DNA from: Coriobacteriia bacterium
GTDB lineage: Bacteria; Actinomycetota; Coriobacteriia; Anaerosomatales; SLCP01
Length of the DNA stretch: 64,000 bases
Direction of reading: 5' to 3'
NCBI GenBank assembly: GCA_014859265.1
Contig: JACUUN010000001.1
Coordinates: forward strand, 9,383 to 73,382
Shown here: in pieces, positions 39,789 through 60,327 of the stretch
Position numbering within the stretch: the stretch's first letter is position 1
Layout: the number at the start of each line of letters is the position of its first letter
The notes under the pieces: generated by a model
What the model was told of the DNA's origin: nothing
The model's input: only the letters and a program-made list of their open reading frames with translations
Databases searched by the model: none
Made by a program: the position numbers and the translations under genes

Positions 39789-40276
39789 ACGAGACCATCA
39801 TGGCGATGTCCGGCATCGACTGGGCGTATCTGGGAGCGGCGGTGGCGGCGACAGGAGGCGGCATAGGCTCCGCGATCGGCATCACGCTCGTCAGCAACGC
39901 GGCCACCGGTGTCGTGACGGAGGATCCGGACAAGTTCGGACGTATCCTGCCGCTCGCGGCCATGCCCGGCACGCAAGGCATCTACGGCTTCATCACCGCG
40001 CTGCTGGTGTTCATCTTCTTCGGCGTCTTCGAGGGCGCCGTCGACATCACCGCCCACGAGGGCCTGCGAGTGTTCTTCGCCTGTCTGCCGGTGGCGTTCG
40101 TCTGCATGGTGTCGGGCATCTATCAGGGCGCGACCGCGGTGGGCGCAGCAGGCATGGTGGCACGTCGCGACGAGGACGCAGGCCGGGCGCTCATCTTCCC
40201 GGCGCTGGTGGAGACATATGCGGTCTTCTCGCTGATCGTGACGATCATCATGATGCTTTACGTCACCACCGGGTAG
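39785..40276 (+). CDS. atpK: V/A-type ATPase proteolipid subunit K (c)
   Basis: 163 aa with 4 TM helices, Gly-rich 'GGGIGSAIG', and a conserved Glu in the last helix pair ('ALVETYAVFSL'). Confidence 0.9.
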   Translation: MNETIMAMSGIDWAYLGAAVAATGGGIGSAIGITLVSNAATGVVTEDPDKFGRILPLAAMPGTQGIYGFITALLVFIFFGVFEGAVDITAHEGLRVFFACLPVAFVCMVSGIYQGATAVGAAGMVARRDEDAGRALIFPALVETYAVFSLIVTIIMMLYVTTG

Positions 40277-40282
40277 GCGACC

Positions 40283-40927
40283 GTGGCTCTCGCTGACATA
40301 CTGCAGCGCATCGAGGAGGACGCGACGGTCGAGGCGGCGGCGATTCTTCGGGAAGCCGAGGAGGCGGCGGCCGCTGTCCGCGCGGAGGCGGAGGAGCGCG
40401 CGAAAGCCCATGCCGAGACGGTTCTCGCACGGGCGACGGCCGACGCCGAGGCAGCTCATGGCGCAAAACTCGCGGTAGCACGCCTCACCGCGCGCGACAA
40501 CGCCCTGGCCTCCAAGCGACAGCTGGTCGAGCGGGTCCTCGGCAGGGTCGCCGACCATCTTGCATCGCTGCCCGCCGAGGAGTACGCGGCGTTCATCGCG
40601 CGCAAGGTCAAGTCAGTCGCGCGGGCCGGCGAGGCGCTTTCCATCGGGCATGAGGACCACGGGCGGCTCGGGCCTTCGATCGCCCCGGCGCTCTCGGCTG
40701 CTAGTGTCGACGTGCAGGTGCGCGGCACCACTGCCGCCATCGGCAATGGAGTCCTCATCGAGGGAGACCGGGTCAAGGTCGAGGTTTCCGCGCGTGCGCT
40801 CGTGTACTCGCGTCGCGAGCGCCTGGTCGCGCTCGTGTCCGAGAAGTTGTTCGGGGCTGACAGCGTTGGGATCGGACCCGCGGAGCTGGCGGATGACACC
40901 GGTCATGACGACGAGGAGGCGACGTGA
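40283..40927 (+). CDS. atpE: V/A-type ATPase subunit E
   Basis: Long N-terminal A/E-rich helix plus a globular C-terminus. The position in the operon fits. Confidence 0.8.
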   Translation: MALADILQRIEEDATVEAAAILREAEEAAAAVRAEAEERAKAHAETVLARATADAEAAHGAKLAVARLTARDNALASKRQLVERVLGRVADHLASLPAEEYAAFIARKVKSVARAGEALSIGHEDHGRLGPSIAPALSAASVDVQVRGTTAAIGNGVLIEGDRVKVEVSARALVYSRRERLVALVSEKLFGADSVGIGPAELADDTGHDDEEAT

Positions 40928-41925
40928 CGCGGATTCGCGCCATAGCCGACCCGGTCAGATACGGGTTCGCGGTGGGCCGGGTGCGCGTGCTTGAGGGGCG
41001 CCTGCTCGGTCACACGACCTTCGAGCGCCTGTTGGATGCACGCGACTACGACCGCCAGCGGCGCATCCTCGCCGACACCGTGTACGCCGACCACCTCGAG
41101 GGAACAGCCACGCCGGATGACGTCGAGCGCGCCCTCGACGCGTCTCTCGTCGAACTCTACGAGGACTTTCTCGAGCACGCGAACCTTCCCGACCCCATCG
41201 TCGCCTACTTCCGGACTCGGCATGACTTCGAGAATCTCAAGGCACGGCTCAAGGCGGAGGCGCTCGGGATGGAGATCGACGGATTGCTCACCCCGCTCGG
41301 GAGTGTCTCGCCCGAGGTCTTCGGCGGGGCTGCCGAGCGGTTGCCGTCGGGCGTACGTGAGGCCGAGGCGCGCATCAAGCTGACGCTTTCTGGCGACGAC
41401 GACACCGTGCCTCCCGAGATGATCGACGCGGCGGTCGACAAGGAGATGTTCGCTTCGCTCTCCACGATCGCGAACGAGTCGAAGAGCGAGTTCGTGCAGC
41501 ATCTCGTGGCGCTCGAGGCCGATCTCGGCAACGTTCGCGCGTTCGTGCGCGGGCGTGTGCGCGAGCTTCCAGTGGCCGACATCGAGCGCGCGCTCGTGCC
41601 GGGTGGTGTGATTCCAGCGTCGACGTTCGTGGCGTACTACCGGCTGCCGTTCGAAGAGGGAGTGAACCGCCTCTCCACGTCGCGCTCTCTCAGCCTGGCC
41701 GATCCCGAGGCGATAGCCGATCCGGCACGCCTCGATGTGGCTCTCGACGCCCTCGTTGCGCGCGAGATCCGTGCGCACCGCCGGACCTCGATCGGACCGG
41801 ATCCGGTCGTGAGCTACGTGCTTGCTCGACGTGCCGAGGTGACCGCGTTGCGCACCATCATCATCGGCACGTTCTCGCAGGTCCCGGTGGAACGGTTGCG
41901 CGAGCGTGTCAGGGATGTGTCTTGA
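40924..41925 (+). CDS. atpC: V/A-type ATPase subunit C (d)
   Basis: 333-aa helical protein. 'YGFAVGRVRVLEGRLL' resembles the subunit C N-terminus. The position in the operon fits. Confidence 0.8.
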   Translation: MTRIRAIADPVRYGFAVGRVRVLEGRLLGHTTFERLLDARDYDRQRRILADTVYADHLEGTATPDDVERALDASLVELYEDFLEHANLPDPIVAYFRTRHDFENLKARLKAEALGMEIDGLLTPLGSVSPEVFGGAAERLPSGVREAEARIKLTLSGDDDTVPPEMIDAAVDKEMFASLSTIANESKSEFVQHLVALEADLGNVRAFVRGRVRELPVADIERALVPGGVIPASTFVAYYRLPFEEGVNRLSTSRSLSLADPEAIADPARLDVALDALVAREIRAHRRTSIGPDPVVSYVLARRAEVTALRTIIIGTFSQVPVERLRERVRDVS

Positions 41926-41926
41926 G

Positions 41927-42259
41927 ATGCGTGAGGCGAAAGTTGCTGTGGTGGGAGACAGCTCGAGCGTGGCGGGGTTCCGCCCGCTCGGGTTCGCGGT
42001 CTTCGCCCTCGAGTCGCCTGCCGAGGCACGAGGAGTGTGGCAGCAGCTCGCAGGTGGTGAGTACGGGGTGGTCTTCATCACCGAGCCGGCTTATGCGGAG
42101 ATCGAGGATCTGGTCGCCGAGGTCGCCGACGAAGCGCTACCGGCCGTGACCGTCATCCCGGGCGCGGGAACCCAGGGTGGAGTCGGAGAGAAGAAGCTGG
42201 CCCGGGCCATCGAGAAGGCCCTTGGAACGACGGTTCTCATCCGAGAAGAGGACGAGTAG
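41927..42259 (+). CDS. atpF: V/A-type ATPase subunit F
   Basis: 'KVAVVGDSSSVAGFRPLGF' is typical of subunit F. ATG at 41927. Confidence 0.8.
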   Translation: MREAKVAVVGDSSSVAGFRPLGFAVFALESPAEARGVWQQLAGGEYGVVFITEPAYAEIEDLVAEVADEALPAVTVIPGAGTQGGVGEKKLARAIEKALGTTVLIREEDE

Positions 42260-44053
42260 ATGGCTGAACTCGAACAGGGAAGGATCGTGAAGGTTGCAGG
42301 TCCCTTGGTCGTGGCCGAGGGACTCGCGCGCTCCCGCATGTACGACCTGGTGCGCGTGGGCGACGAAGGCCTGATGGGTGAGATCATCGAGATGCGCGGC
42401 GACCGTGCCTCGATCCAGGTTTACGAGGAGACCGAGGGCCTCGGCCCGGGAGACGTCGTCGTCTCCACAGGCGCGCCGCTCTCGGTGGAACTCGGCCCGG
42501 GCATGATGGGCGCGGTCTACGACGGCGTCCAGCGCCCGCTCGACGCGCTCAAGGTGCAGTCAGGAGCCTTTCTCGCCCGCGGCGTGAGCGCTCCCGGTCT
42601 CGACCGAGAGGCGCGCTGGACCTTCCGCGCGACGGTCGATGCGGGCGACCGCGTCGAAGGCGGCGACGTCATCGGCATCGTTCAGGAGAACGAGGTCATC
42701 GCGTTGCGCATCATGGTGCCACCGGGCATCGACGGCCGCATCGGTGAGATCGGCTCGGGCACCTACACCGTCGAGGAAACGCTCGGCACGCTCGTGGCCG
42801 ACGATGACACCGAGCATGCACTCAAGCTCATGCAGACGTGGCCGGTGCGCATCCCGCGCCCCTACCGGCGCAAACTCTCCCTCGCCGAGCCCCTCGTGAC
42901 CGGCACTCGCGTCATCGACACGTTCTTCCCGTTGCTCAAGGGTGGTGCGGCGTGCATTCCCGGGCCGTTCGGCGCGGGCAAGACCGTCGCGCAGCACCAG
43001 ATTGCCAAGTGGTCTAACGCCGAGGTGGTCGTCTTCATCGGCTGCGGCGAGCGCGGCAACGAGATGACCGACGTGCTCATGGAGTTCCCCGAGCTCACCG
43101 ACCCGTACTCGGGCCAGCCGCTCATGCGACGCACGGTGCTCGTGGCCAACACCTCGAACATGCCGGTGGCCGCGCGCGAGGCGAGCGTGTACACAGGCAT
43201 CACGATGGCCGAGTTCTTCCGTGACATGGGCTACAACGTCGTGCTCCAGGCCGATTCGACGTCGCGCTGGGCAGAGGCCATGCGCGAGATCTCCGGCCGC
43301 CTCGAAGAGATGCCGGGCGAAGAGGGCTTCCCGGCCTACCTGGGCACGAGACTCGCCGCGTTCTACGAGCGTGCCGGCAAGGTCGCCACGCTCGGCGGGC
43401 CGCTCGAAGCGGATGCCGAGGAGCGGCAGGGCTCGGTTTCGGTCGTCGGTTCGGTCTCGCCTCCCGGCGGCGACCTCTCCGAGCCGGTGGTGCAGAACAC
43501 GTTGCGCGTCGTGAAGGTCTTCTGGGCGCTCGAGGACCGGCTCGCCTACGAGCGGCACTTCCCGGCGATCAACTGGCTCGTCTCCTACTCGCTCTACCTC
43601 GACAAGATCACGCCCTACTGGCGTGAAGCGGTGAGCGACGAGTACCGAGCGCGGCGCGACAAGTGCATGGAGCTCCTCCAGCGCGAGAGCGAACTCGCCG
43701 AGATTTCCCGCCTCGTGGGCGTGGAGGCGCTCTCGCCCGAAGAGCAGATCATCATGGAGACGGCGAAGTCGATCCGTGAGGACTTCTTGCAGCAGAACGC
43801 GTTCCGTGACGACGACCAGTTCACCTCGCTCGTCACGCAGGACCGCCTGCTCAGGGTGATCCTTCTCTTCCACGAAAAGGCGCTCCAGGCGCAGGCCGAG
43901 GGCGCGCCGCTCAAGGAGATCTTTGACGCACCGGTCCGGGAACGTATTGCGAGGGCGAAGTACACGACCGAGGAGACCGACGTCTTCAGCCAGATAGAAT
44001 CGGACATAGAGACACAGTTGGTCGCCGATGGCGGAGAGGCGGGTGAGGTGTAG
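42260..44053 (+). CDS. atpA: V/A-type ATPase catalytic subunit A
   Basis: Walker A 'GPFGAGKTV' and the non-homologous insert region typical of A subunits. 597 aa. Confidence 0.95.
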   Translation: MAELEQGRIVKVAGPLVVAEGLARSRMYDLVRVGDEGLMGEIIEMRGDRASIQVYEETEGLGPGDVVVSTGAPLSVELGPGMMGAVYDGVQRPLDALKVQSGAFLARGVSAPGLDREARWTFRATVDAGDRVEGGDVIGIVQENEVIALRIMVPPGIDGRIGEIGSGTYTVEETLGTLVADDDTEHALKLMQTWPVRIPRPYRRKLSLAEPLVTGTRVIDTFFPLLKGGAACIPGPFGAGKTVAQHQIAKWSNAEVVVFIGCGERGNEMTDVLMEFPELTDPYSGQPLMRRTVLVANTSNMPVAAREASVYTGITMAEFFRDMGYNVVLQADSTSRWAEAMREISGRLEEMPGEEGFPAYLGTRLAAFYERAGKVATLGGPLEADAEERQGSVSVVGSVSPPGGDLSEPVVQNTLRVVKVFWALEDRLAYERHFPAINWLVSYSLYLDKITPYWREAVSDEYRARRDKCMELLQRESELAEISRLVGVEALSPEEQIIMETAKSIREDFLQQNAFRDDDQFTSLVTQDRLLRVILLFHEKALQAQAEGAPLKEIFDAPVRERIARAKYTTEETDVFSQIESDIETQLVADGGEAGEV

Positions 44054-45481
44054 GTGGAGCGCGAGTACATGACAACCCGCGACATCGTCGGGCCGCTGCT
44101 GCTCGTCGAGAACGTCTCGGATGTGACCTACGGCGAACTCGTCGAGCTCGAGTTCCCGGACGGCACGGTTAGCCTCGGCAACGTGCTCGAGGTAAACGAG
44201 GACGTCGCACTCGTGCAGGCGTTCGAAGGGACCCGCGGCGCGAACCCGAGCCAGACCAAGGTGCGCTTCCTAGGCCGGGGACTCACACTCGGCGTGTCGC
44301 GCGATATGCTCGGGCGCGTCTTCGACGGACTCGGGCGACCGATGGATGGCGGACCGGAGATCCTGCCCGACGTGCAGCGCTCGATCCACGGCTCCTCAAT
44401 CAACCCGACCGCACGCGACTTCCCCGACGACTTCATCCAGACCGGCGTGTCGAGCATCGACGGCCTGAACCCCCTCGTGCGCGGCCAGAAGCTGCCGATC
44501 TTCTCGGGCTCCGGCTTGCCGCACAACCAGCTTGCGGCTCAGATCGCACGCCAGGCCCAGGTCATCGGCGGTGGTGCAGGCGACTTCGCGGTCGTCTTCG
44601 CCGCCATGGGCATCACCTTCGAGGACGCCGACTTCTTCATGACCGAGCTCCGGCAGACCGCCGCCATCGAGCGAGCCGTGCTCTTCCTCAATCTCGCCGA
44701 CGACCCAGCAGTCGAGCGCATCGCGACCCCTCGCATGGCGCTCACCGCGGCCGAGTACCTCGCGTTCGACTGCGACATGCACGTCGTCGTCGTGCTCACC
44801 GACATGACCTACTATTGCGAGGCGCTGCGCGAGGTCTCGGCGGCTCGCAAGGAGGTCCCCGGACGCCGCGGCTTCCCGGGCTACCTCTACACCGACCTCG
44901 CCACCATCTACGAGCGCGCGGGGCGCGTGCAGGGCAGGGCGGGGTCGATTACGCAGATTCCCATCCTGACGATGCCCGAGGACGACAAGACGCACCCCAT
45001 TCCCGACCTCACCGGCTACATCACCGAGGGCCAGATCATCCTCGATCGCGCCCTTCACCGGCGCGGCATCTACCCGCCGGTCGCGGTGCTGCCGAGCCTC
45101 TCGCGCCTCAAGCAGAAGGGCATCGGGCCGGAGAAGACGCGTGAGGACCACGCCGACCTTTCCAACCAGCTCTTCGGCGCTTACGCACGCGGCATCCAGG
45201 CCAAGGAGCTCGCGCTAATCCTCGGCGAGGCGGCCCTCTCCGACGCAGACAAGGCGTTCTCCGCCTTTGCCGATGCGTTCGAGGACCGCTTCATCCGGCA
45301 GGGCGAGCACGAGGACCGCTCGATCGAGGAGACGCTCGCGATCGGTTGGGAGCTCATGACGCTCCTGCCCCGCACCGAGCTCAAGCGCATCAAGGACGAG
45401 TACATCGAGCGCTACCTGCCGGGTGGCGCTGAGACTGCCGAAGAGACTGCTGACGCCGAGGAGGTCACCGCTGCACCGTGA
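44054..45481 (+). CDS. atpB: V/A-type ATPase subunit B
   Basis: '[16 protein letters not shown]' and '[15 protein letters not shown]'. The start is GTG 44054 or ATG 44069. Confidence 0.95.
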
Positions 45482-45666
45482 CGACCGTCATGTGGATAGC
45501 GGTCGGGGCGCTGCTCGTCGCCCTCGTGGCGCTGCAGATCGTGGGCGCGCGGGCGCTCGCCGACTTCGGCGTGCGGACGTCTCCCGCCGTGCGCGTCCTG
45601 CGCGCGATCAACGTGGCCGTGGTCATCGCCGTCGTCGCGTTCGCGTTCTGGAAGTGGGTGAGCTAG
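45478..45666 (+). CDS. Small two-TM membrane protein embedded in the V-ATPase operon
   Basis: 62-aa ORF with high GC3. GTGA overlap with the atpB stop, and its TAG ends 1 nt before the atpD GTG. Two hydrophobic helices (aa ~4-23 and ~41-60). No family recognised. Confidence 0.5.
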
Positions 45667-45667
45667 C

Positions 45668-46297
45668 GTGCCGGCGCTGCGCGTGAATCCGAACCGCATG
45701 GAGCTGCTCAAACTGCGTCGGCGCCGTCAGGTGGCTCAGCGCGGACACAAGCTACTCAAAGACAAGCTCGACGAGCTCATGAAGGAGTTCCTCGCCCGCA
45801 TCGGCGAGAGCCGCAAGATGCGCAGCTCGGTCGAGCGCGAGCTCTTCGCCGCGTACGGGACGTTCGCGATCGCGCGTGCCGAGTCGGGGAGCGCATCGCT
45901 CGCAGCAGCGCTGGCGAGTGGCACACCCGAAGACCTCCTCGAGGTGGGCGAGCGCAACGTCATGAGCGTGCGGATCCCGCAGTTCACCCTCGGCGAGCTT
46001 CCCGCTCCCGGTGGGTACTCGCTCGTGACCACTCCGATCGTGCTCGACTCGGCGCTCGACGGGCTTGCCAGCCTCGCGCCGCGCCTCATCGAGCTGGCCG
46101 AGCGCGAGAAGGCCATCGAGCTGCTCGCTGCCGAGATCGAGCGGACTCGTCGGCGCGTGAACGCGCTCGAGTACGTGCTCATCCCCCAGCTCGACGAGAC
46201 CATCCGCGACATCGGGATGAAGCTCGACGAGGCGGAGCGCAGCAACCTCACGCGCCTTATGAAGGTCAAAGAGATGATCGAGGCTCAGCAGCAGTAG
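45668..46297 (+). CDS. atpD: V/A-type ATPase central-stalk subunit D
   Basis: 'RVNPNRMELLKLRRRRQVAQRGHKLLKDK' is the subunit D N-terminal signature. Confidence 0.9.
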   Translation: MPALRVNPNRMELLKLRRRRQVAQRGHKLLKDKLDELMKEFLARIGESRKMRSSVERELFAAYGTFAIARAESGSASLAAALASGTPEDLLEVGERNVMSVRIPQFTLGELPAPGGYSLVTTPIVLDSALDGLASLAPRLIELAEREKAIELLAAEIERTRRRVNALEYVLIPQLDETIRDIGMKLDEAERSNLTRLMKVKEMIEAQQQ

Positions 46298-46326
46298 ACG
46301 CTGCCCGCGGCCCCCGGCGATTCTTC

Positions 46327-47115
46327 TCAGATCTCGAACTCGGTGCGCGACTCGGTACCCGCCAGGTGCAGCGTCTCGAGGATGCGGGAGCGCAGCGCGA
46401 AGAACTCCCCCGAACCGCGCACTCGCGGCCGGGAGAAGGTGACGTCTATCTGCTCGGCGATGCGTCCCGGACCGGGTGTCATGAGCACGATTCGGTCGGC
46501 GAGATAGATCGCCTCGTCGACATCGTGGGTGACGAAGAGCACGGTGCGCTCGTGTTCGCACCAGAGCCGCTCGAGCTCCTCCTGCATCCGCGCACGGTTG
46601 ATTGCGTCGACGGCGCCGAACGGTTCGTCCATCAGTAGTACGGCCGGGTCGACCGCGAGCGCGCGGGCGATGCTGACACGCTGGCGCATGCCGCCCGAGA
46701 GTTCGTGCGGATGCCATTCGGCGAATGCGCCGAGACCGACCGCGTCCAGCTCGGCTAGTGCCCGTGCACGCCGTTCGGCCGGCGGGACTCCCCTCACCTG
46801 CAGTCCGTACTCGACGTTGTCGCGAACGGTGCGCCAGGGGAACAGCCCGTAGTCCTGGAAGACGGTCACTGCGCCGGTCCCCGGGTCGGTGATCTCGGTC
46901 TCGCCAATCAAGACCCGGCCCGAGGTAGGCTGCTCGAATCCGCCTGCTATCGCGAGCAGCGTCGACTTGCCGCATCCGCTCGGTCCCACGAGGCAGACGA
47001 ACTCGCCGTCTGCCACGGAGAGTGTCACATCATGCACCGCGCGATGGGCCTGGCCGCTGCTCGTGCCGAACAGCTTCGTGACCGAATCGAACCGGATGCC
47101 GGGGCGGGCACTCAC
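46327..47115 (-). CDS. ABC transporter ATP-binding protein (NitT/TauT family)
   Basis: Walker A 'GPSGCGKST', signature 'LSGGMRQR' and Walker B 'LLMDEPF'. Confidence 0.9.
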   Translation of the reverse strand: MSARPGIRFDSVTKLFGTSSGQAHRAVHDVTLSVADGEFVCLVGPSGCGKSTLLAIAGGFEQPTSGRVLIGETEITDPGTGAVTVFQDYGLFPWRTVRDNVEYGLQVRGVPPAERRARALAELDAVGLGAFAEWHPHELSGGMRQRVSIARALAVDPAVLLMDEPFGAVDAINRARMQEELERLWCEHERTVLFVTHDVDEAIYLADRIVLMTPGPGRIAEQIDVTFSRPRVRGSGEFFALRSRILETLHLAGTESRTEFEI

Positions 47116-47870
47116 GCCGCACCTCCCCAGTGGCGGCGTACGCGCGCCTCGGCGAGGCGGAGTGCCCGGTCGATGCCCAGTCCCAGTGCCCCGATGATCA
47201 CTATGGCCACGAGCACGAGATCGGTGCGAAGCGAGTTGCGGGCATCGATAATGAGGTAGCCGAGCCCGTTGGTGACGCCGAGCATCTCGCCCGCCACGAT
47301 GAACACCCAGCTCGTGCCGACCGCGATGCGAAGTCCCACGGCAATTCCGGGCAGGGACGCCGGGAGGATGATACGAGCCACGGTGCCAGCTCGCGAATCA
47401 CCGAAGGTTCGCGCGACCTTGAGGTAGAGGGGATCGACTTCCCGGACGGCGCTGGTGGTGGTCAGTATCACCGGATAGACGGCGGCGGTGAACACGATTG
47501 CAATCGCAGGCAGCTCTCCGATGCCGAACCACAGCGTGAAGAGCGGGAACCATGCGATCGGCGAGATCGGACGCAGCACCTGGATAATCGGGTCGAATGC
47601 GCTTCTAGCATGCACGCTCAAGCCGAGCAGCAGGCCAAGGGGTACTCCGATGGCTATGCCGCCGAGGTAGCCGATGGCGAAACGCTGCAAGCTTGCGACG
47701 ATATGGCCGAACAGACGGCCCCCAGCCGCGGTCTCCACCGCACCGAGGACCACCGAACCGGGTGGCGGGAACAGCAGCGTCGACCCGACACGAGTAGCGG
47801 CCACGTGCCACGCGGTCACGAGGAGGGCGGTGGCAGCGAGTGGCAGGAGTATGCGGGCCGTGCGTGTCAC
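47112..47870 (-). CDS. ABC transporter permease (NitT/TauT family)
   Basis: Six TM segments. EAA-like loop 'KVARTFGDSRAGTVARIILPASLP'. 4-nt overlaps on both sides. Confidence 0.9.
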   Translation of the reverse strand: MTRTARILLPLAATALLVTAWHVAATRVGSTLLFPPPGSVVLGAVETAAGGRLFGHIVASLQRFAIGYLGGIAIGVPLGLLLGLSVHARSAFDPIIQVLRPISPIAWFPLFTLWFGIGELPAIAIVFTAAVYPVILTTTSAVREVDPLYLKVARTFGDSRAGTVARIILPASLPGIAVGLRIAVGTSWVFIVAGEMLGVTNGLGYLIIDARNSLRTDLVLVAIVIIGALGLGIDRALRLAEARVRRHWGGAA

Positions 47871-48865
47871 GGGGTCGCGTCCACCGCGAACGAATCATCG
47901 TAGAAGACATCTGCGGGCACCGAACCCTCGATCAGGTCGAGATCGATCAGGGCCTCGCGCAGCTCGTCGAGTTCGGCCAGCGTAGGCGTGAAGTCACGGT
48001 ACTCGATGCCGAGTTCGAACGAGGCGAGCCAGAGCTCGGGCCCGTACTGCGTGTAGGTCGCCGCCGTCTCGGCGGCTGCCTCACGGTCGGCGTCGATGCG
48101 CTCACCCGCCTCGGTCAGGGCGGCGACGAGCGCACTGACGGTCTCGGGGTCCTCGTCGGCAAACGAGCCGGTCACGACCAGTCCGCAGCACAGCCAGTCC
48201 GGCCAGAGATCCTCGGAGCGGTAAAGGTCGTAGCCGAAGCCCTCGGCGACCGCTCGTGCGCCGAATGGTTCGGCCACGATGTAGCCGGCGATCTCACCGC
48301 GTCCGAGCGCGGCGGGCATGTCGGGTGGAGGCATCTCGATCCACTCGACCTCGTCTGCGGAAAGCCCGGCATCGGCTAGCGCCCGCAGGAAGAGGATGTT
48401 GTGGCCGGACAGGCGGTGTGGGATGGCGAAGCGCTCACCGGCGAGTTCGGCGACCGAGCCGATGTCGTTGCGGACGACGAAGGCATCGCCGTTGCGGTGC
48501 GTAAGCGTGACGAGTCGCTGGTCAAGACCCTTCTCGACCGCGGCGAGCGCGATCTCGAGCATGGTGACCGCCCCGTCGATGGAGCCGGAGTTGAGCGCCT
48601 CGGTGAGTTCAGGCCACGATGCGAACGGCACGAGTTCGAGGGCCACCCCGTCGATTACACCACCGTTGTCGGCATCGGCGACGAGCAGCGGCGCGGAGTG
48701 CGTGATCGGCAGGTAGCCGATGCGGATGACTTCACGGCGGTCGGTGGCTGCGGGGATGTCGTTGTCGTCCGCGGTCGGTGTAGCCGTCGAGCAGCCTGCG
48801 ACGACGAAGGCGACTGCCAGTAGCGCAGCGAGCGCAATGGCGCGGAGCGCGATGCGGGATGTCAT
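47867..48865 (-). CDS. ABC transporter substrate-binding lipoprotein (NMT1/SsuA/TauA-like)
   Basis: Lipobox 'FVVAGCS'. 'IRIGYLPITHSAPLLVA' is typical of NitT/TauT-family binding proteins. I chose the start at ATG 48865, which has an AAGGAGGA RBS. Confidence 0.8.
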   Translation of the reverse strand: MTSRIALRAIALAALLAVAFVVAGCSTATPTADDNDIPAATDRREVIRIGYLPITHSAPLLVADADNGGVIDGVALELVPFASWPELTEALNSGSIDGAVTMLEIALAAVEKGLDQRLVTLTHRNGDAFVVRNDIGSVAELAGERFAIPHRLSGHNILFLRALADAGLSADEVEWIEMPPPDMPAALGRGEIAGYIVAEPFGARAVAEGFGYDLYRSEDLWPDWLCCGLVVTGSFADEDPETVSALVAALTEAGERIDADREAAAETAATYTQYGPELWLASFELGIEYRDFTPTLAELDELREALIDLDLIEGSVPADVFYDDSFAVDATP

Positions 48866-48951
48866 GTGCGGATCCTCCTTGATGGCATGGGTGTGTGGGA
48901 CGGGTCGGGAGGCGGTCATGCGGGCCGATGTGAGCGTCGCGGTCGGGCGGC

Positions 48952-50907
48952 TCACCCCCAACCCAACGCCTGGCGCTTGCGGTGCAGATGCATGAGCCCG
49001 GTCTGCGCGGCGCATGCGGGGTCAGTCTCGGTGTAGATCTTCGCGCCGACCAAGCTCAGCAGCCCGTCTCCCGCGAAGAACTCGGTGATGTCGTTGCGGC
49101 CGTCGAGCAGTTCGCCATCTGGTCCGATGCGGGGTACCGCGACGGGAATCTGCGCGGGAAAACCGGAGAGCACGCTGATCCCGTGAACGAGGAACGTCGC
49201 GCCCTGCCCCACAGTCTTCTCGTTGCCCGGCTCGGCGCCGACGAACAGATAGGGGAGCTCTGCCAGCGGCCGGTCGAGTTCCCCGGCGATGGCGATGAAC
49301 AGTCGCAAGCTGCGCACGTTGTCGACACAGCCGCCCACCGCAAGCACCGGAGGCACGCCGGCCTCCTCGAGCAGCTCGCGAAGTCCGGGAGGGGCGAGTT
49401 CGGCGGCTGCCGGGTCGCACAGGCCCGCGTTGAGCAGCGCGTGCGACGCGCACCCTGTCGTGGTCACGAGCACGCCAGCCTCGATCAGCCTCCGCGCGAT
49501 GCCCACATGTGCGCTCTCGTATGCGACCTTGGGCGTGTTGCATCCCACCACCGTCGCGACGCCGCGGATTCGGCCGTCGCGGACCGCATCGGCGAGCACG
49601 CTTGCGCCGCCGAACGCCCCAAGGATCGCCTCGTAGCCGAAGCCGCCCATCGCGGTAGTCACGCGCTCGGGAATCTCGATCTTGGAACGGTCGCGGGCTC
49701 CGAAGGCGGCGACCGCGGTACGGGCTACGCGCTCGGCATCGGCATCGAGGGTCTCCGGGCGCTCAGGATTAAACGGGATGTGAGTGGCTCCCGGTATGCG
49801 GTTCGAGATCGAAGTAGTGATGATCTCGGTGCCGAAGCAGTCCGCGACGATCTTGAGCCCGGGGATGACGCACTGCATGTCGACGATGACGGCGTCGACC
49901 GCACCGGTCCCGAGCGCGAGTTCCTGGCCCATGATGTTGGTGACGGTAGGGATGCCGTAGCGGGCGAGTAGCTCGTCACCGGTGCAGCACATGCCGCCCA
50001 GCACGATGCCCTCGGCGCCGGCCTCGCGTGCCAGTGCCTCGATCTCGGGTGAGCGCACCTTCTCGATGACCTTCTCGACCATCACCGGCGAGTGGCCGTG
50101 CAGAAGGACGTTCACGTGTCCGGGCTTGAGCACGCCGTAGTTCACCTCGGTGAGCCGGGGTGTGGGCACTCCGTAGAGCACCTCGGTCGCGAGCGAAGAG
50201 GTGTAGAGCGCGCCGTAGCAGTAGGCGAGTGCGCTGCGCAACTCCTGGCCGGCGAGCGCGGTCCAGTCCGAGCAAGCGCCGAGGGTCGTCATGTGCAAGC
50301 TCTCCATGCTCTCGTACGCGGCAGAGCGTGGAAGGATGTCGAGTTCCTCCCAGACCTTTCGGCGGTCGGAGGGAGCGAACGCTTCGAGGGTATTCATGGG
50401 GTCGGCGGTCATCCGGCCGATGTCATCGAGCAGGGCTTGTGCGACAGCGCGCACCACACCGTCATCACCCAGGCCGTCGGTATCGATGTGGAACCGATCC
50501 GCGAGGTCGAGGGCGTGCTCTCGCCCCTTGAGCATGATGGTTGCCGTGCCCTCGGCGGTCGCTCTGAGTGCGAGCACGACCTCGTGGGCATGGCGGGCGT
50601 GTGCGGACATGCCCGCGGCGAGCTGCCGGACGATAGTGGCCATGACGACCTGGTTCATGTCGCGCCCGCACACGCCGCGCGGCGCCTTGCCGGAAATGCG
50701 GCACGGTCCCCACTGGCACATGCGGCAGCAGGTACCGCGCAGCCCCGAGGGGCACTGTGGCTGCTGCGCTGCGAAGCGGTCGAACACGGTCTCGCAGCCC
50801 GCGTCTTCGAGCCGGTCGATCAGCTGGACCGTCGCCGGGTTAGGAGTAAGGGCGCGGACATCGGCCTTGTCGGGTATGGGCTGGTTGAGGTGACGGTTGA
50901 AGCGCAT
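48952..50907 (-). CDS. cooS: Anaerobic Ni-dependent carbon-monoxide dehydrogenase catalytic subunit
   Basis: N-terminal B/D-cluster motif 'C..GLRGTCCRMCQWGPCRI....GVCG'. C-cluster ligand contexts 'LLHGHSP', 'GGMCCTG', 'VDMQCVIP', 'VVGCNTP', 'TTGCASH' and 'VGGCVDN' are all present. Confidence 0.9.
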   Translation of the reverse strand: MRFNRHLNQPIPDKADVRALTPNPATVQLIDRLEDAGCETVFDRFAAQQPQCPSGLRGTCCRMCQWGPCRISGKAPRGVCGRDMNQVVMATIVRQLAAGMSAHARHAHEVVLALRATAEGTATIMLKGREHALDLADRFHIDTDGLGDDGVVRAVAQALLDDIGRMTADPMNTLEAFAPSDRRKVWEELDILPRSAAYESMESLHMTTLGACSDWTALAGQELRSALAYCYGALYTSSLATEVLYGVPTPRLTEVNYGVLKPGHVNVLLHGHSPVMVEKVIEKVRSPEIEALAREAGAEGIVLGGMCCTGDELLARYGIPTVTNIMGQELALGTGAVDAVIVDMQCVIPGLKIVADCFGTEIITTSISNRIPGATHIPFNPERPETLDADAERVARTAVAAFGARDRSKIEIPERVTTAMGGFGYEAILGAFGGASVLADAVRDGRIRGVATVVGCNTPKVAYESAHVGIARRLIEAGVLVTTTGCASHALLNAGLCDPAAAELAPPGLRELLEEAGVPPVLAVGGCVDNVRSLRLFIAIAGELDRPLAELPYLFVGAEPGNEKTVGQGATFLVHGISVLSGFPAQIPVAVPRIGPDGELLDGRNDITEFFAGDGLLSLVGAKIYTETDPACAAQTGLMHLHRKRQALGWG

Positions 50908-50936
50908 CGCGGGCTACTCCTCTGTATGATCTGCCG

Positions 50937-51881
50937 CTAGGCGGTCTCGGCCGTCTCGGTAGCGAATAGCCCGGTCGACAGGTAGCGCTCACCGGTGTCC
51001 GGAAGCACGACGACGATCAGCTTGCCGACATTCTCCTCGCGTGCGGCAACCTGAAGCGCTGCCGCTGTGGCGGCACCCGATGAGATTCCAGCGAAGATGG
51101 CCTCGTCGCGCGCGAGACTTCGGGCCGCCTCGGCCGCGTCCGCTGCGGTCACGGTCACGACCTCGTCGATCAGGTGCACGTCCAGCACCTCGGGCACGAA
51201 TCCCGCGCCAATCCCCTGGATCCGGTGCGGCCCCGGCTGTCCGCCGGAGAGGACGGGGGACTCGGCGGGTTCGACGGCGACCGCGCGGAATGAGGACTTG
51301 CGCTCCTTGAGAACGCTCGCGACCCCGGTGAGGGTCCCGCCGGTGCCCACGCCTGAGACGAGGATGTCGACGGCCCCGTCGGTATCGGCCCAGATCTCCT
51401 CGGCGGTCGTGATGCGGTGGACCTCCGGGTTTGCCGGGTTCGCGAACTGCTGGGGGATGAACGAGTCCGGCTTCTCGGCAGCGAGTTGCTTGGCTCGTGC
51501 CATCGCGCCCTTCATGCCCTCAGGCCCCGCAGTGAGCACGAGTGTGGCGCCGAACGCGGCCATGACCTGTCGGCGCTCCACGCTCATCGTCTCGGGCATG
51601 ACGAGTGTGAGCCGGTGTCCGCGGGCCGCTGCGACCATCGCCAGACCGATGCCCGTGTTGCCGCTGGTGGGCTCGATGATCTCGGTGTCGGGACCGATGA
51701 GGCCGTCGCGCTCAGCGGCATCGATCATCGCGAGCGCGATGCGGTCCTTGACCGAGCCCATCGGGTTGAAGGATTCGAGTTTGGCTACCACGCGGGCGGG
51801 CAGGCCTGCTGCGAGATTGCGGAGCTCGACGAGGGGAGTCCCGCCGATGGCTCCTGTGATGTCGTGGTGGATGCGGCTCAT
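50937..51881 (-). CDS. cysK: Cysteine synthase A (O-acetylserine sulfhydrylase)
   Basis: '[11 protein letters not shown]', '[16 protein letters not shown]' (PLP Lys) and '[12 protein letters not shown]'. I chose the start at ATG 51881, which has a GGAGG RBS. Confidence 0.95.
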
Positions 51882-51900
51882 GAAGCACCTCCGAATTAAA

Positions 51901-51919
51901 ACGCATGACAACCATGCGT
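51901..51919 (-). promoter_or_regulatory. Short hairpin plus U-run in the cysK 5' leader (possible attenuator or stabiliser)
   Basis: Minus strand reads ACGCATG-gttgt-CATGCGT followed by TTTTAATT, immediately before the GGAGG RBS. Confidence 0.35.
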
Positions 51920-51939
51920 ATAGTGCGAGTATTGACCCG

Positions 51940-51968
51940 AGTATACGGAGGAGGCGAGCGTGGGGCAA
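51940..51968 (-). promoter_or_regulatory. Candidate cysK promoter (TTGCCC-17-TATACT)
   Basis: Minus strand: -35 at 51968-51963 and -10 at 51945-51940. This is the same hexamer pair style as the promoter at 18895. Confidence 0.45.
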
Positions 51969-52165
51969 GGTCCGAAGCCGCACGTTATATATGCGGGATA
52001 GTCGGCGGTTCAGCCGGACATTCTCGGGTGGGCTGGGCTCTTTGCCTGCGGCAGGCCTCAAGTCCGACTTCCCACACGCCGATACTCCCGATGTCAGGAC
52101 AGGTGTACTCCTGACTGAAAGCGGCCCCCGTGGCGCCCCTCCACTAGGTGGGCCGCTCCTCAGAC

Positions 52166-52196
52166 GGGTCCCGGCATGAGACCATGGCCGGGACCC
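52166..52196 (-). terminator. GC-rich palindromic stem-loop after pmbA
   Basis: GGGTCCCGGC (52166-52175) pairs with GCCGGGACCC (52187-52196) around an 11-nt loop, 42 nt past the pmbA stop. There is no T-tract. Confidence 0.55.
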
Positions 52197-52237
52197 GCGT
52201 CGTTGTGCACAGGCGCCCCGGCGGACCCCGTCGATCG

Positions 52238-53581
52238 TCAGCCGGTCTGTCCCGTGAACTCCCAGGTGTCGATCAGCAGTCCGGGCACGAGCACCGATCC
52301 GAGCATCACGTCGAAGAACGCCCGCTCTCGCGTCACCGCCCTCACAGCGTTCAGTGCCGCGACTGCTCCCTGCGTGAAGCGCTGGTTCTTGAGCGGCGCG
52401 GTGAGCGCGCCGTCCTCGATGAGAAACGTGCCGTCACGGGTCATGCCCGTGAGCGTGGCTGGGACCGGGTCCTCGACGTTCACGTAGTGGAAGCGGCTGA
52501 CGTACACGCCGCGCTCGACCGAGCCGATGAGCTCGTCGATCGTCGCGTCACCGGGGTCCATCTTCAGGTCGAGGGCCATCGGCCCGTAAGGGTTCGGTGC
52601 GGGAAGCGCGTGCCCGGTGTTCTCACGTCCGGTGCGGGCGCCCCAGTATGAGTCCGTCACGACGTCCGTCGCCACCCCGTTCTCGATGATCGGCACGCGC
52701 CGCTTCGGCATGCCCTCGAAGTCGAAGGTGAGTCCGAAAGCCTCGGGCGCGAGCGCATCGTCGCTGATGTTCACGAGTTCGGACATGATGCGCTCACCGA
52801 GGCGCCCGCTCATGAAGGAGCGGCCCTCCTCGAAGGCGCGCGTCGAGAAACCGAGATAGCCGAGGAAGTCGACGATGTCGGCGACGGCCTCAGGCGCAAG
52901 CACCACTGTGTATGCGCCCGGTTCGAGGTCGGTGGGGTACTCCGAGCGCTGTGCGAGAGTCGCGGCCTCGTCGCCGAGTGTGTCCGCTGCGAGCTTCGCC
53001 GGATCGGGCCCGTGGTAAGAGGCCCAGCCCGAGCCGCCACGGTCGGTGCGCGCAAGCACCGTCGCCCGGACCGAGGTCGTCTCCATCCCGACGTCGACCC
53101 CGAGCGAGTTGCCGACGGCGACCGTCTGAAGGGTGGAGGCCACGCCTCCGGCGGCCTTGATGAGCCGCGAAGAACACTGTTGCACGATTGCGTGCACCGC
53201 CTCCGCGCGGCGGTCGGGGCCGAACTCTCCAGCGGCAGCCGCAGCGCGTGCGGGCGTGTCAACCGGCTCCGGCGCGGGAAGTCCGGGGAAGTTCGGGTCG
53301 GCGGGGGCCGCCGAGGCAGCGGTCACCGCAGCGGCGCAGCACGCGGAGAGCGACTCGTCGTCGAGCCGGTTGGTCGAGGCCACGCCCTGCCGGTCGCCGA
53401 GGACCGCTCGAACCGACACACGCGCATCGGCCTCGGTGACATTCTGGTGGATGCGGTTCTCCGCGAAGCGGGTGAGCGAGTCCTCGTGCGAGGTGACGAG
53501 CGCCTCGGCGGCGTCCGCTTCCGTGAGCGCGACGACGCGTGCGGCGAGCTCGCGTGCCTGCGCGGTCGTGAGCCTGCTCAT
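52238..53581 (-). CDS. pmbA: TldD/PmbA-family metallopeptidase (PmbA/TldE-like)
   Basis: '[13 protein letters not shown]' and 'VSRFHYVN' family motifs. ATGA overlap with tldD. Confidence 0.85.
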
Positions 53582-56657: not shown

Positions 56658-57035
56658 ATGCCGCAGGCCGGATGGTGTGAAGGATGTAAGGCATACGTGT
56701 GGGTCGCCGAGAATCGCGGGTGCGTGAACGGCCACGACGCCGCGATGATTTCGGGCATCTACGAGGCCGAACCCGATAGGGGCGTCCTCGAGGAGGCGCT
56801 CGAATCCGCGCAGCGCGCGGCGGAACGCGCGGGCGAGGCGACGAAGCAGGCATGGGACGAGGCGAAGCCCTCGCTGAAGGAGGCGGGAGCGGCCGCCGAG
56901 AAGGCGGCCGAGGAATTCGCCGAGGGCCTCAAGCGGTTCGGTGAGGCAATCGCCGGTCGCACGCCGCGAGCATCAGACCCTGCACCGCCGTCCCCCGGGA
57001 TTCCTGGGGTGTCTGCCGGGGACGAGGAGCAGTGA
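56658..57035 (+). CDS. Hypothetical protein (Cys-rich N-terminus, A/E-rich helical body)
   Basis: 125-aa ORF. N-terminal 'CEGC...C.NGH', then apolipoprotein-like A/E/K helices and a Pro-rich tail. GAGGAGGA RBS present. Confidence 0.5.
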   Translation: MPQAGWCEGCKAYVWVAENRGCVNGHDAAMISGIYEAEPDRGVLEEALESAQRAAERAGEATKQAWDEAKPSLKEAGAAAEKAAEEFAEGLKRFGEAIAGRTPRASDPAPPSPGIPGVSAGDEEQ

Positions 57036-57123
57036 GCTGAGGCCACCTCGCACCGGAGCGCGTCGAGCGGTATTGTTGCATGAGAAGCAAACACTTCTGC
57101 ATACACCATCGGAAGGAGCGCGC

Positions 57124-58137
57124 ATGATCAAGGTCGCCGTGTGGGGGACGGGCATGATGGGGCAGGGCCTGCTGCGCTTCCTGCTCGACCGCCCGGATGA
57201 CATCGAGCTCGTCGGCGCGATCGTCACCAACCCCGCAAAGGAGGGCAAGACCGTCGGCGACTTGCTCGGCGACGATGCGTGTGACGTGCGGATGACGACC
57301 GCCGCCGCAGCCGTCCTCGCGAAGAAGCCGGACGTGGTGTGCATCTGCACGCAAAGCAACCTCGAGGAGATCACCGATCAGATCGAGCCAAGTATCCGGG
57401 CCGGCGCCAATGTGCTCTGCATCGCCGAGACGCTCGCCTATCCGTGGGCGACCGACGCCGAGTGGGCCGAGCGTGTCGACGAGATCGCGCGCGAACACGG
57501 CGTCTCCGTGCTCGGCACCGGCATCAATCCCGGCTTCATCCTCGACGCGCTTATCGTGATGTGGACCTCGGTCTGCCTGCGCGTCGACCGCATCGAGGCG
57601 CGACGCGTGAACGACCTCTCGCCCTTCGGCCCCACGGTCATGGCGAGCCAGGGCGTGGGCACGACCGTCGAGGAGTTCGAACGCGGGGTCACCGACGGGA
57701 CGATCGTCGGCCACATCGGCTTCCCCGAGTCCATCCACCTTATCGCGCGGGCGCTCGGCTGGGAGATCGACGAGATCGTCGAGACCCGCGAGCCCATCGT
57801 GAGCACCGTCGAGCGCTCCACACCGCACGTGCGTGTGGCGCCGGGTGACGTCGCCGGCTGCCAGCACATCGGCCGGGGTTACAGCAAAGGCGAGATCAAG
57901 ATCGAGCTCGTGCACCCGCAGCAGATTCACCCGCACCTCGAGGGCGCGGACACCGGCGACTACATCCGCGTGATCGGCGACCCCGAGGTCAACATGGCCA
58001 ACACGCCTGAGATTCCCGGGGGCAAGGGAACGTACGCGAGCACGGGCAACTACATCCCGCTCATCGTGCCCGCTCCCGCAGGGCTGCTGACCGTGGTGGA
58101 CCTGCCGCTGCCCCGCTTCTGGGCGCCCACAGCGTAG
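57124..58137 (+). CDS. ord: 2,4-diaminopentanoate dehydrogenase-like NAD(P) amine dehydrogenase
   Basis: Rossmann N-terminus 'IKVAVWGTGMMGQ' and DapB-like fold. Adjacent to ortA/ortB, as in ornithine-fermentation clusters. Confidence 0.8.
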   Translation: MIKVAVWGTGMMGQGLLRFLLDRPDDIELVGAIVTNPAKEGKTVGDLLGDDACDVRMTTAAAAVLAKKPDVVCICTQSNLEEITDQIEPSIRAGANVLCIAETLAYPWATDAEWAERVDEIAREHGVSVLGTGINPGFILDALIVMWTSVCLRVDRIEARRVNDLSPFGPTVMASQGVGTTVEEFERGVTDGTIVGHIGFPESIHLIARALGWEIDEIVETREPIVSTVERSTPHVRVAPGDVAGCQHIGRGYSKGEIKIELVHPQQIHPHLEGADTGDYIRVIGDPEVNMANTPEIPGGKGTYASTGNYIPLIVPAPAGLLTVVDLPLPRFWAPTA

Positions 58138-58152
58138 AGGGAGGCAGGCGAG

Positions 58153-58476
58153 ATGGCAGGGGAACGCTGCACGATCGGACAGTGGGTGGAGGTCGAGCGC
58201 GTCCTGCTCGAGCCCGTCGACCGGGCCGCGAACCTGCCGGAGGACACGGCGGCCGAACCGCTGCTGGTCTGGGTGAAGGGTTTCGCGCTTGGCGAGGCGG
58301 CGCTCGGCGAGGAGTGCGAGGTCGAGACGGCGACCGGGCGCATCGTGCGCGGCCGCCTCTCCGACCTCGACCCGGCCTACACGCACACCTTCGGCTCCCA
58401 GCCGCCCGAGATAGCGTGCGTGGGGCGGGACCTGCGGGCCCGGCTCGCGGAGTACCGCGCGAAGGCGGGTGGGTGA
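58153..58476 (+). CDS. ortA: 2-amino-4-ketopentanoate thiolase alpha subunit
   Basis: 107-aa protein directly upstream of, and overlapping, the PLP subunit. Size and context fit OrtA. Confidence 0.75.
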   Translation: MAGERCTIGQWVEVERVLLEPVDRAANLPEDTAAEPLLVWVKGFALGEAALGEECEVETATGRIVRGRLSDLDPAYTHTFGSQPPEIACVGRDLRARLAEYRAKAGG

Positions 58477-59893: not shown

Positions 59894-59913
59894 GGGGCGT
59901 GTGCTCCGCGACG

Positions 59914-60327
59914 CTAGAGCAGCCGTATCTCTACGGGGGTGTCGATGCCGGCGAAGGCTTTCCGGTCTGCGGTGATGAGCGGGCAACGCAGCTCCTCAGC
60001 CAATGCGAGGAAGAGCGCGTCGTAGATTGCCACTCTATGTTTCCGCGCCAGTTGAGATGTCCTTTGGAGTTGGCCAGTGCCAGTGTAGTAGAGGAGCAAT
60101 CTGGCGCTCTCGAGAAGGTCGAGGATCTCATTCGTCTGTTCGAGGGGGAGTTGCGAGTGGAGCAAGGTGTTCGCGATCTCGACCGGCAGTATCGTGGGAG
60201 CGGAGATAATCCGCGTGCCTTCAAGATGGGACCGAAGCAGTTCCTCGGCCTCTTTGAGACCAGTCTCGTCCTCTTTGTAGAACCACTTGTAGGCGACGCA
60301 TGAGTCGACAACCACTTGGATACTCAT
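59914..60327 (-). CDS. vapC: PIN-domain ribonuclease toxin
   Basis: 'VVVDSCVAYKW' (first acidic residue), 'PTILPVEIANTL' and 'LITADRKAF' are PIN signatures. ATGA overlap with the upstream small ORF. Visibly lower GC than the flanks. Confidence 0.85.
   Translation of the reverse strand: MSIQVVVDSCVAYKWFYKEDETGLKEAEELLRSHLEGTRIISAPTILPVEIANTLLHSQLPLEQTNEILDLLESARLLLYYTGTGQLQRTSQLARKHRVAIYDALFLALAEELRCPLITADRKAFAGIDTPVEIRLL

Follow-up and report, generated by a model that had tools for sequence, protein, structure and literature searches.

The window, a stretch of 64,000 nucleotides from an uncultured Coriobacteriia bacterium (Actinomycetota) with a high-GC genome (67%), carries on its minus strand five closely packed genes in the order cysK, cooS, binding protein, permease and ATPase. 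All coordinates and junctions agree with the arrangement described in the first-pass annotation. The gene cysK (50937..51881) starts with an ATG at 51881, ends with a TAG at 50937-50939 and encodes 314 aa. A 29-nt spacer (50908..50936), in which the GAGGAG ribosome-binding site that had been assigned to cooS is seen directly in the sequence, separates it from cooS (48952..50907; ATG at 50907, stop at 48952, 651 aa). After another 86 nt (48866..48951), where AAGGAGGA is read from the sequence as the ribosome-binding site before the next start, come the genes for a lipoprotein substrate-binding protein of the NitT/TauT (NMT1_2) family with the lipobox VAGC (47867..48865), a BPD_transp_1 family permease of 252 aa (47112..47870) and an ABC_tran family ATPase of 262 aa (46327..47115). 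The starts of the permease and ATPase genes each lie over the stop of the gene before them, giving the two reported 4-nt overlaps.

The five genes probably form one transcript, as suggested by the 29-nt and 86-nt spacers, the two overlaps and the lack of any terminator-like site in a scan of the cluster, which includes the cysK-cooS junction where none had been noticed before. Both spacers fold no better than shuffled sequences (z = 0.07 for cysK-cooS and +1.6 for cooS-binding protein). At four related loci (L001, L002, L016 and L017) the stop of the cysK reading frame overlaps the earliest possible cooS start codon, as called mechanically. The upstream edge of the unit is probably marked by a terminator formed by tandem GC-rich hairpins on the minus strand between the upstream TldD/PmbA gene and cysK (52045..52215; fold energy -88.8 kcal/mol, z = -3.1), the first stem of which persists in the 90%-identical relative L001, where bases on both of its sides have changed. 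A promoter-like site TTGCCC-17-TATACT lies on the same strand upstream of cysK (51940..51968; 9/12 positions in a consensus scan), and, as this stretch is not conserved in L001, it is no more than a candidate. We rejected a leader hairpin with a U-run at 51901-51919 as an attenuator, since the 90%-identical relative does not keep it and its fold is just marginally better than that of shuffles (z = -1.8). An Rfam search of 45500-53000, which includes the leader of the module, gave no riboswitch at E <= 1. One flank is a convergent V/A-type ATPase operon and the other holds a TldD/PmbA pair, an NlpC/P60 gene and ornithine-fermentation genes. Recent horizontal transfer of the module into the host genome was considered and rejected, as the five genes resemble the flanks in GC and GC3.

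The cysK product is an O-acetylserine sulfhydrylase with the features of cysteine synthase A, namely a TIGR01139 score of 439.5 bits (cut-off 350.95), a PALP match, the PLP-lysine motif SVKDR and the substrate loop TSGNTG. The idea of a specialised CysK subfamily in the module was dropped, the CysKs being ordinary; the Moorella module copy is 71% identical to the second CysK of that genome.

CooS matches PF03063 with 403.8 bits (E 1e-120), well over the cut-off, and TIGR01702 with 475 bits, just below the cut-off of 478. Residue positions map onto ChCODH-II numbering with a consistent offset, and the ligands of the metal clusters are all present (C52/C60, C61/C64/C69/C80, H272, C308, C346, C456, C486 and C527), together with H103 and K564 as the equivalents of His93 and Lys563. 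The earlier statement that the B-, D- and C-cluster ligands are retained is thus borne out. C346 corresponds to Cys333, a site occupied by Asp in B-1 and B-3 examples. The protein has no His-rich tail, with one His in the first 60 residues and two in the last 60. The phmmer scores are 488 bits to a B-3 member, 463 to a B-1 member and 432 to the best solved CODH, which is outside clade B, and the protein is 62-65% identical to the Moorella and Calderihabitans proteins found in the cysK/ABC context. Directly downstream of cooS lie the NitT/TauT ABC genes (COG0715, COG0600 and COG1116) that characterise clade B, and the full set of C-cluster Cys residues including the second Cys, without a His-rich extension, is that of group B-4. 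On scores, residues and context, CooS probably belongs to Ni-CODH clade B, structural group B-4.

The nearest solved structures, ChCODH-IV (6ELQ) and TcCODH2 of Thermococcus (6T7J), have the same fold with all metal ligands aligned (E ~1e-128), but both carry Ile at Lys563+4 and lack the insertion of 13-17 residues that CooS has at ~588-600. Neither of the two is known to lie next to an ABC transporter or cysK, and ChCODH-IV is a high-affinity CO scavenger. CooS does not have the second-sphere set of fast CO oxidisers (His96/His99/His102, Asn262 and Ile567). Only H106 of the proton relay is kept, while E109 and L112 replace His99 and His102, S273 replaces Asn262 and Q568 replaces Ile567. That the positions of the His relay and of Asn262 matter has been described (PMC13592312). 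The first-pass annotation had taken CooS for a functional Ni-CODH; the metal ligands support this, but the inference of activity was overstated in view of E109/L112, S273, the Gln for Ile567 and the insertion. It is further weakened by RfCODH of Ruminococcus flavefaciens (clade B, group B-1), the sole characterised enzyme of the clade, for which a cryo-EM structure and biochemistry were published in 2026 and which oxidises CO at 13 mU/mg, against ~900 U/mg for ChCODH-II (PMC13592312).

RfCODH shares with the CooS of the window the Glu/Leu at the His99/His102 positions, a changed Asn262 position, the lack of Ile567 and an ABC transporter with the same Cys-Cys/His type of binding protein. It differs in being only 39% identical, in having Asp for Cys333 and a His-rich N-terminus, in lacking the 13-17-residue insertion, in having Ala at the Gln568 of the window and in having no cysK neighbour. 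Its binding protein co-evolves with the CODH, from which the authors infer an imported substrate (PMC13592312). The same study, of July 2026, holds that CO is probably not the substrate, and among hydroxylamine, nitrate, CO2 and carbonate it observed turnover with hydroxylamine only (PMC13592312).

The binding protein of the window matches NMT1_2 with E 1e-42. Its score of 126.3 bits against SsuA_fam (TIGR01728) is under the cut-off of 163.5, with far lower scores against the TauA models, and we therefore do not label it a binder of sulfonates or taurine. Among solved structures its best relative is 3UN6 of S. aureus (E 7e-38 with the protein and 3e-83 with the family profile), which was deposited with zinc bound (PMC13592312). 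Among 22 aligned homologues, the invariant residues include H56, W84, H123, R124, R151, E199, W221 and C226-C227, while H150 and H155 are at least 90% conserved. The motifs YLPITH, IPHR-S-H, AEPFG and CC are conserved in these homologues and common to 3UN6. Judged by these motifs, the protein belongs to a 3UN6-like Cys-Cys/His subfamily, and its conserved pocket matches both the zinc-bound 3UN6 and the published model of the Ruminococcus homologue. The permease resembles SaoP, TauC, NtrB and SsuC, and the ATPase resembles SaoA, NtrCD and TauB, with every score below cut-off.

As had been noted before, the operon-like unit stands without cooC, cooF, hydrogenase or acsB genes. The CooC-type P-loop GKGGxGK[S/T] is absent from all frames of the 64-kb window and from all 40 related loci that we compared. 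Motif searches for cooC and cooF in the window and these loci gave just scattered non-homologous Fe-S proteins and no conserved cooC or cooF.

Conservation of the context within the CooS clade, on which the first reading had been made to depend, is evident. Adjacency of cysK could be tested in 32 of the 40 loci, and cysK adjoins cooS in 30 of these B-4 loci; the ABC genes are found in every B-4 locus long enough to show them. The five-gene set is strongly conserved over at least six phyla, with a permuted gene order in two of them, Acetothermia (L028) and Chloroflexota (L036 and probably L031). When all ORFs in the loci were clustered without bias, no further conserved family emerged near the module. 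Six Actinomycetota loci (L020, L022, L025, L027, L030 and L038; 51-57% identical) form a sister group that is uninformative for the module because they have no conserved neighbours and have Gln for His93, the latter seen in the five full-length loci, L038 being left out.

The arrangement itself is not new, being the published context of clade B, group B-4 (PMC6344411). The same module has been described as cooS4 of Calderihabitans (PMC7306483) and as a 'CODH-cysK cluster' (bioRxiv 10.64898/2026.07.10.736077), and the cluster was reported earlier in Moorella, Calderihabitans and Thermanaeromonas, with its function termed elusive. What the window contributes is only a taxonomic extension of the module to Coriobacteriia. 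Gene content and order are like those around the second CODH of Moorella thermoacetica, around cooS4 of Calderihabitans maritimus and in the Thermanaeromonas cluster. Compared with the Bacillota B-4 modules, CooS is 62-65%, CysK ~62-66% and the ABC parts 45-57% identical, with the same complete Cys ligand set, no His-rich tail and no cooC or cooF. The host, a 67% GC member of the Coriobacteriia, differs from the published B-4 members, which are Bacillota. The window also differs from its B-4 relatives in having no cystathionine-type genes, two-component system or SAM riboswitch beside the module.

In nine loci, Cys_Met_Meta_PP enzymes, the PLP enzymes of Cys/Met metabolism, adjoin the module. 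At the Neomoorella carbonis locus (L034), a SAM riboswitch (87.5 bits) is immediately followed by a run of seven genes with all gaps below 60 nt, comprising two PLP enzymes, cysK, cooS and the three ABC genes, and the riboswitch is likewise present at a decayed copy of the module in N. sulfitireducens. The sulfur-related link that the first-pass annotation had proposed therefore gains support, and with PLP enzymes in nine loci and the riboswitch in two Neomoorella species we favour a role in sulfur acquisition. Our analysis tentatively suggests, with a probability of about 0.45, that the module is a sulfur-acquisition route and not a CO-oxidising system. The importer would bring in a small sulfur-bearing anion through the binding protein with its Cys-Cys/His pocket, and the CODH-like enzyme, whose B and D clusters would take up electrons from the general pool of ferredoxin, would convert the compound at the C-cluster and set free sulfide or a related sulfur nucleophile. 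CysK might then trap this nucleophile on O-acetylserine, and in some genomes the adjacent cystathionine-type enzymes could hand the sulfur on to methionine.

Some observations speak against this sulfur-acquisition role. The riboswitch evidence is limited to one genus, and the leader of the module in the window has no recognised riboswitch. CysK is a paralogue of the ordinary kind, and it could lie here because cysteine is needed and not because sulfide is supplied. The pocket of the binding protein could hold a metal as cargo instead of as a cofactor. In groups B-1 to B-3 the same transporter occurs in the absence of cysK, and what unites the clade may thus be something other than sulfur.

B-4, unlike B-1 to B-3, keeps the full Cys set, His93 and Lys563, and could therefore still be a competent CO dehydrogenase. 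CooS might accordingly be a conventional or accessory CO-scavenging Ni-CODH that passes electrons to ferredoxin, with CooC encoded elsewhere and with an indirect link, or none, to cysK and the ABC genes. The retained ligands of the C-, B- and D-clusters agree with this, in particular the Cys333 equivalent that is lost in other clade B groups, as does the first sighting of B-4 in carboxydotrophic genera (PMC6344411). Also in its favour, the expression of Calderihabitans cooS4 was somewhat higher under CO but not significantly so; against it, this gene does not count as CO-responsive (PMC7306483). We regard CO scavenging as unlikely, since the five-gene set is conserved over phyla, outlasts changes of order and is present in lineages that are not known to use CO, cooC and cooF lie near none of the 40 loci, and the module is under a SAM riboswitch in Neomoorella. 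The replacements at His99/His102, Asn262 and Ile567 point the same way, and with CO the activity of RfCODH is lower than that of canonical enzymes by a factor of 10^3 to 10^5 (PMC13592312).

Distinctly less probable is the hypothesis of Inoue et al. 2019 that the ABC transporter imports nickel or another metal for a CooC-independent maturation of the CODH. The invariant His and vicinal Cys residues of the binding protein, the zinc in its closest solved relative 3UN6 (PMC13592312), the lack of CooC and the His-rich tails of the B-1 and B-3 enzymes would all fit such a supply of metal. However, the B-4 enzymes, including CooS of the window, have no such tail, and the same subfamily of binding proteins is found without any CODH in L048 and L049 and in S. 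aureus. Control by a SAM riboswitch fits sulfur and not nickel, the linkage to cysK is left unexplained, and the binding protein, which falls in an anion-binding cluster, is well below the size of known nickel-binding proteins (PMC13592312).

Handling of selenium, methyl-chalcogen or organometallic compounds as in SAO or type I MGC systems, with CysK acting on selenide or a related nucleophile, is very doubtful: SaoP and SaoA are the closest matches of the permease and ATPase, the cleft of SaoX has a Cys-Cys at 224-225, near C226-C227 by residue number and not by alignment (bioRxiv 10.1101/2022.07.06.499078), and the L048 homologue lies within a UroD/RACo cluster (PMC10418091), but the Sao models score far under cut-off, ordinary enzymes of Cys/Met metabolism under a SAM riboswitch make up the neighbours, and no selenoprotein or Sec-machinery genes were seen near the module, where Pfam labels covered just two Zhaonella places (L041/L042).

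What clade B CODHs do is a recognised question in the field, and the B-4 modules point to sulfur compounds as the next class, through the near-obligate cysK, the neighbouring cystathionine-type enzymes and the SAM-riboswitch control in Neomoorella. In line with the sulfur link, L048 encodes a homologous binding protein and its ABC partners, with no CODH, next to genes for a Cys_Met_Meta_PP enzyme, an aminotransferase and a PALP enzyme and to UroD/RACo methyltransferase genes; for clusters of this kind, a role in the handling of methyl-sulfur or methyl-selenium compounds has been suggested (PMC10418091). We speculate, at long odds, that clade B CODHs may be C-cluster enzymes repurposed for an imported sulfur analogue of CO2 or bicarbonate, whose C-S bond would be cleaved to sulfide. 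Thiocyanate or monothiocarbonate/COS, of which COS had already been put forward in the first-pass annotation, would be candidate compounds, which might be captured outside the cell by a Zn(Cys2His) site like that of beta-carbonic anhydrases, and CysK would trap the sulfide in B-4 modules. If true, this would add a new anaerobic sulfur-assimilation route and provide the first physiological substrate for a whole CODH clade. A precedent in logic only, from an unrelated protein family, is the nitrogenase-like methylthio-alkane reductase MarBHDK of sulfur salvage, in which a small-gas metalloenzyme scaffold is reused under sulfur limitation and frees a sulfur nucleophile for Cys/Met synthesis (PMC10418091). 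Moorella is genetically manipulable and thus well suited to examining the sulfur role of the B-4 module.

Our analysis suggests that the cysK-cooS-ABC module may be a route of sulfur acquisition that is linked to the synthesis of cysteine and methionine. This is the function best supported by the gene context and by the riboswitch of one genus, and we put its probability at slightly below one half. An anion would be imported and then converted by the CODH-like enzyme, and the sulfur set free by this enzyme would be fixed by CysK. The COS role put forward in the first-pass annotation becomes one case of a wider and speculative option, i.e. a CO2 analogue that carries sulfur, for example thiocyanate or monothiocarbonate. 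The module is of value in that it directs the active, still open question of which substrate the clade B CODHs use towards sulfur compounds.

The module is a real and well-conserved unit, while the arrangement itself is already known. The link between cooS and the ABC genes has been published (PMC6344411; bioRxiv 10.1101/2025.09.14.676152), and the cooS4 locus of C. maritimus, which is not significantly CO-responsive, is a cysK-cooS-ABC cluster (PMC7306483). The function of the 'CODH-cysK cluster' in Thermanaeromonas, Neomoorella and Calderihabitans was termed elusive (bioRxiv 10.64898/2026.07.10.736077), and a cysteine-synthase context has likewise been noted in gut Megasphaera (PMC11338639).

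The coordinates and junctions of the five minus-strand genes, as read from the sequence, are exactly those of the first-pass annotation, and the family assignments of the five products are clear. cysK (51881-50937, above the TIGR01139 cut-off) is followed, after a 29-nt spacer carrying GAGGAG, by cooS (50907-48952), which matches PF03063 strongly and scores 475 bits on TIGR01702 against a cut-off of 478. An 86-nt spacer carrying AAGGAGGA leads to the genes for a lipoprotein binding protein (48865-47867, NMT1_2), a permease (47870-47112, BPD_transp_1) and an ATPase (47115-46327, ABC_tran), with a 4-nt overlap at each of the last two junctions. The transporter parts resemble sulfonate, taurine, nitrate and Sao transporters, all below the cut-offs of those models. 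No terminator-like site was found within the cluster by a consensus scan, neither of the spacers folds more stably than its shuffled versions, and the sequence is consistent with the five genes forming one transcription unit. Upstream of the module, directly past a TldD/PmbA stop codon, lie two tandem GC-rich hairpins (52045-52215, minus strand; -88.8 kcal/mol, z = -3.1). In the 90%-identical relative the two sides of the first stem have both changed, with the stem preserved. The pair probably acts as a terminator that lacks a U-tail and separates the TldD/PmbA unit from the module. A promoter-like site (51968-51940, minus strand) lies upstream of cysK. Between this site and the cysK ribosome-binding site, right before the latter, come a short hairpin and a UUUAAUU run. 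The whole stretch (51901-51968) has no Rfam match, and its sequence is not kept in the 90%-identical relative.

The module very probably belongs to clade B, group B-4. The nearest relatives are Coriobacteriia MAGs (90% and 69% identity), and the window CooS is 62-65% identical to the proteins of Moorella thermoacetica and Calderihabitans maritimus, which together with the Thermanaeromonas enzyme belong to structural group B-4 of clade B (Inoue et al., PMC6344411). Its members are recognised by an intact C-cluster motif and by the lack of a His-rich tail, and NitT/TauT ABC transporters accompany all clade B groups (PMC6344411). Judged by its residues, the window CooS fits the B-4 description. 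It has equivalents for all D-, B- and C-cluster ligands as well as His93 and Lys563, with self-consistent offsets to the ChCODH-II numbering, and the Cys333 position is Cys, whereas it is Asp in the gut B-1 and Desulfuromonadaceae B-3 examples, each of which has a His-rich tail. Its bit scores are 463-488 to the B-1/B-3 members of clade B versus at most 432 to any solved CODH. Like the Ruminococcus flavefaciens B-1 enzyme (RfCODH), it carries the clade B changes, i.e. Glu/Leu at His99/His102 and Ser at Asn262 (PMC13592312). The position of Ile567 is an invariant Gln (residue 568 of the window CooS), whereas it is Ile in the solved CODHs compared (TcCODH2, ChCODH-IV and the D. vulgaris enzyme) and Ala in the B-1/B-3 examples. 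An insertion of 13-17 residues near residues 588-600 occurs neither in any solved CODH structure nor in the B-1/B-3 examples; Gln568 and the insertion are encoded at about 49100-49210 of the window.

We collected 40 related cooS loci by scanning a single genome for each species and compared them by clustering all ORFs and by tblastn with the five window proteins. Of the 32 B-4-type loci with sequence available, 30 have cysK next to cooS, and the ABC genes were found in all B-4 loci that are not cut short. The hosts cover Actinomycetota, Bacillota, Myxococcota, Acidobacteriota, Chloroflexota, Acetothermia and Armatimonadota. In Acetothermia the genes run cysK-ABC-cooS, in Chloroflexota ABC-cooS-cysK, and therefore the gene set survives rearrangement. 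The ORF clustering gave no further conserved families around the module in the 40 loci, and no CooC motif lies within 10 kb of any of them. Three loci hold decayed copies: L033 has a truncated cooS fused by deletion to a partial permease, L026 has both cooS and the binding protein shortened, and just fragments of cysK, cooS and the ATPase are left in L035. In an Actinomycetota sister group (L020, L022, L025, L027, L030 and L038; CooS 51-57% identical) cooS stands alone with no conserved neighbours. The group retains Gln568 and the insertion, and the catalytic His93 is replaced by Gln in its five full-length members, the truncated L038 being left out. A less probable rival reading takes the module as a conventional CO scavenger. 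The complete ligand set speaks for it, while the altered proton relay, the replacement of Ile567, the conserved gene neighbourhood and the data on RfCODH (PMC13592312) argue against it.

The sulfur reading draws on gene context and on a riboswitch. Cys/Met-metabolism PLP enzymes adjoin the module in nine loci. Other neighbours are a two-component system in five loci and a methyltransferase in four, and the module CysK is an ordinary CysK. A SAM riboswitch (6399-6507 of L034, 87.5 bits) in Neomoorella carbonis directly heads a packed run of two Cys/Met PLP enzymes, cysK, cooS and the ABC genes, and another (6772-6880, 85.5 bits) precedes two PLP enzyme genes and the decayed module in N. sulfitireducens (L035). 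No riboswitch was recognised in the window (searched over 45500-53000) or in the loci other than these two.

The binding protein falls into a separate subfamily with invariant His56, Trp84, His123, Arg124, Arg151, Glu199, Trp221 and a vicinal Cys226-Cys227 pair, which includes S. aureus 3UN6, a structure deposited with zinc bound. The RfCODH paper (2026) models the same metal site with two Cys and one to two His; its authors found co-evolution of CODH and binding protein, inferred the import of an unknown substrate and did not consider sulfur (PMC13592312). In the related SaoX, two adjacent Cys occupy positions 224-225, numbers close to 226-227 (bioRxiv 10.1101/2022.07.06.499078). The Cys/His pocket would suit a transporter importing metal for CODH maturation, another less probable reading, but the subfamily occurs without CODH as well, the B-4 enzymes have no His-rich tails, and the SAM riboswitch points elsewhere. 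Among six homologous binding proteins with contexts examined, four have a CODH neighbour. No CODH was found in the ~8 kb recovered upstream of the homologue in L049, the downstream side of which ends after the permease gene. In L048 (104-9078) the homologue and its ABC partners occur without CODH. After them come one gene each for a Cys_Met_Meta_PP enzyme, aminotransferase and PALP enzyme, then two UroD-family genes and one for a RACo activase. The set resembles an Mlp / type I MGC cluster, a type for which methyl-sulfur or methyl-selenium metabolism has been proposed (PMC10418091). A selenium or organometallic role for the module itself is a further reading of low probability. In the gut B-1 loci L045-L047, cooS and two small hypothetical genes precede two further genes (14065-14862), one for a carbon-nitrogen hydrolase of the nitrilase superfamily and one for a B3_4-domain protein.

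The five genes have the same GC and GC3 as their flanks. A convergent V/A-type ATPase operon (37782-46297) lies downstream, and two TldD/PmbA genes, an NlpC/P60 gene and ornithine-fermentation genes lie upstream. No CooC-type GKGGxGK[S/T] P-loop was found in any frame of the 64-kb window, and its sole ferredoxin-type motif is near 12.9 kb. The ornithine-fermentation cluster (56941-63101, plus strand) encodes 2,4-diaminopentanoate dehydrogenase, an OrtB-like PLP enzyme and a B12-dependent D-ornithine aminomutase; this cluster and the V/A-type ATPase operon indicate that the host is an anaerobic amino-acid fermenter. Elsewhere the window encodes DUF711, PGA_cap, prs and a gene pair resembling NfnAB or GltD (29996-32322, plus strand). 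One gene of the pair has DHODB Fe-S and NAD-binding domains and the other has Fer4_20 and Pyr_redox_2, and the pair could encode a ferredoxin-linked oxidoreductase.
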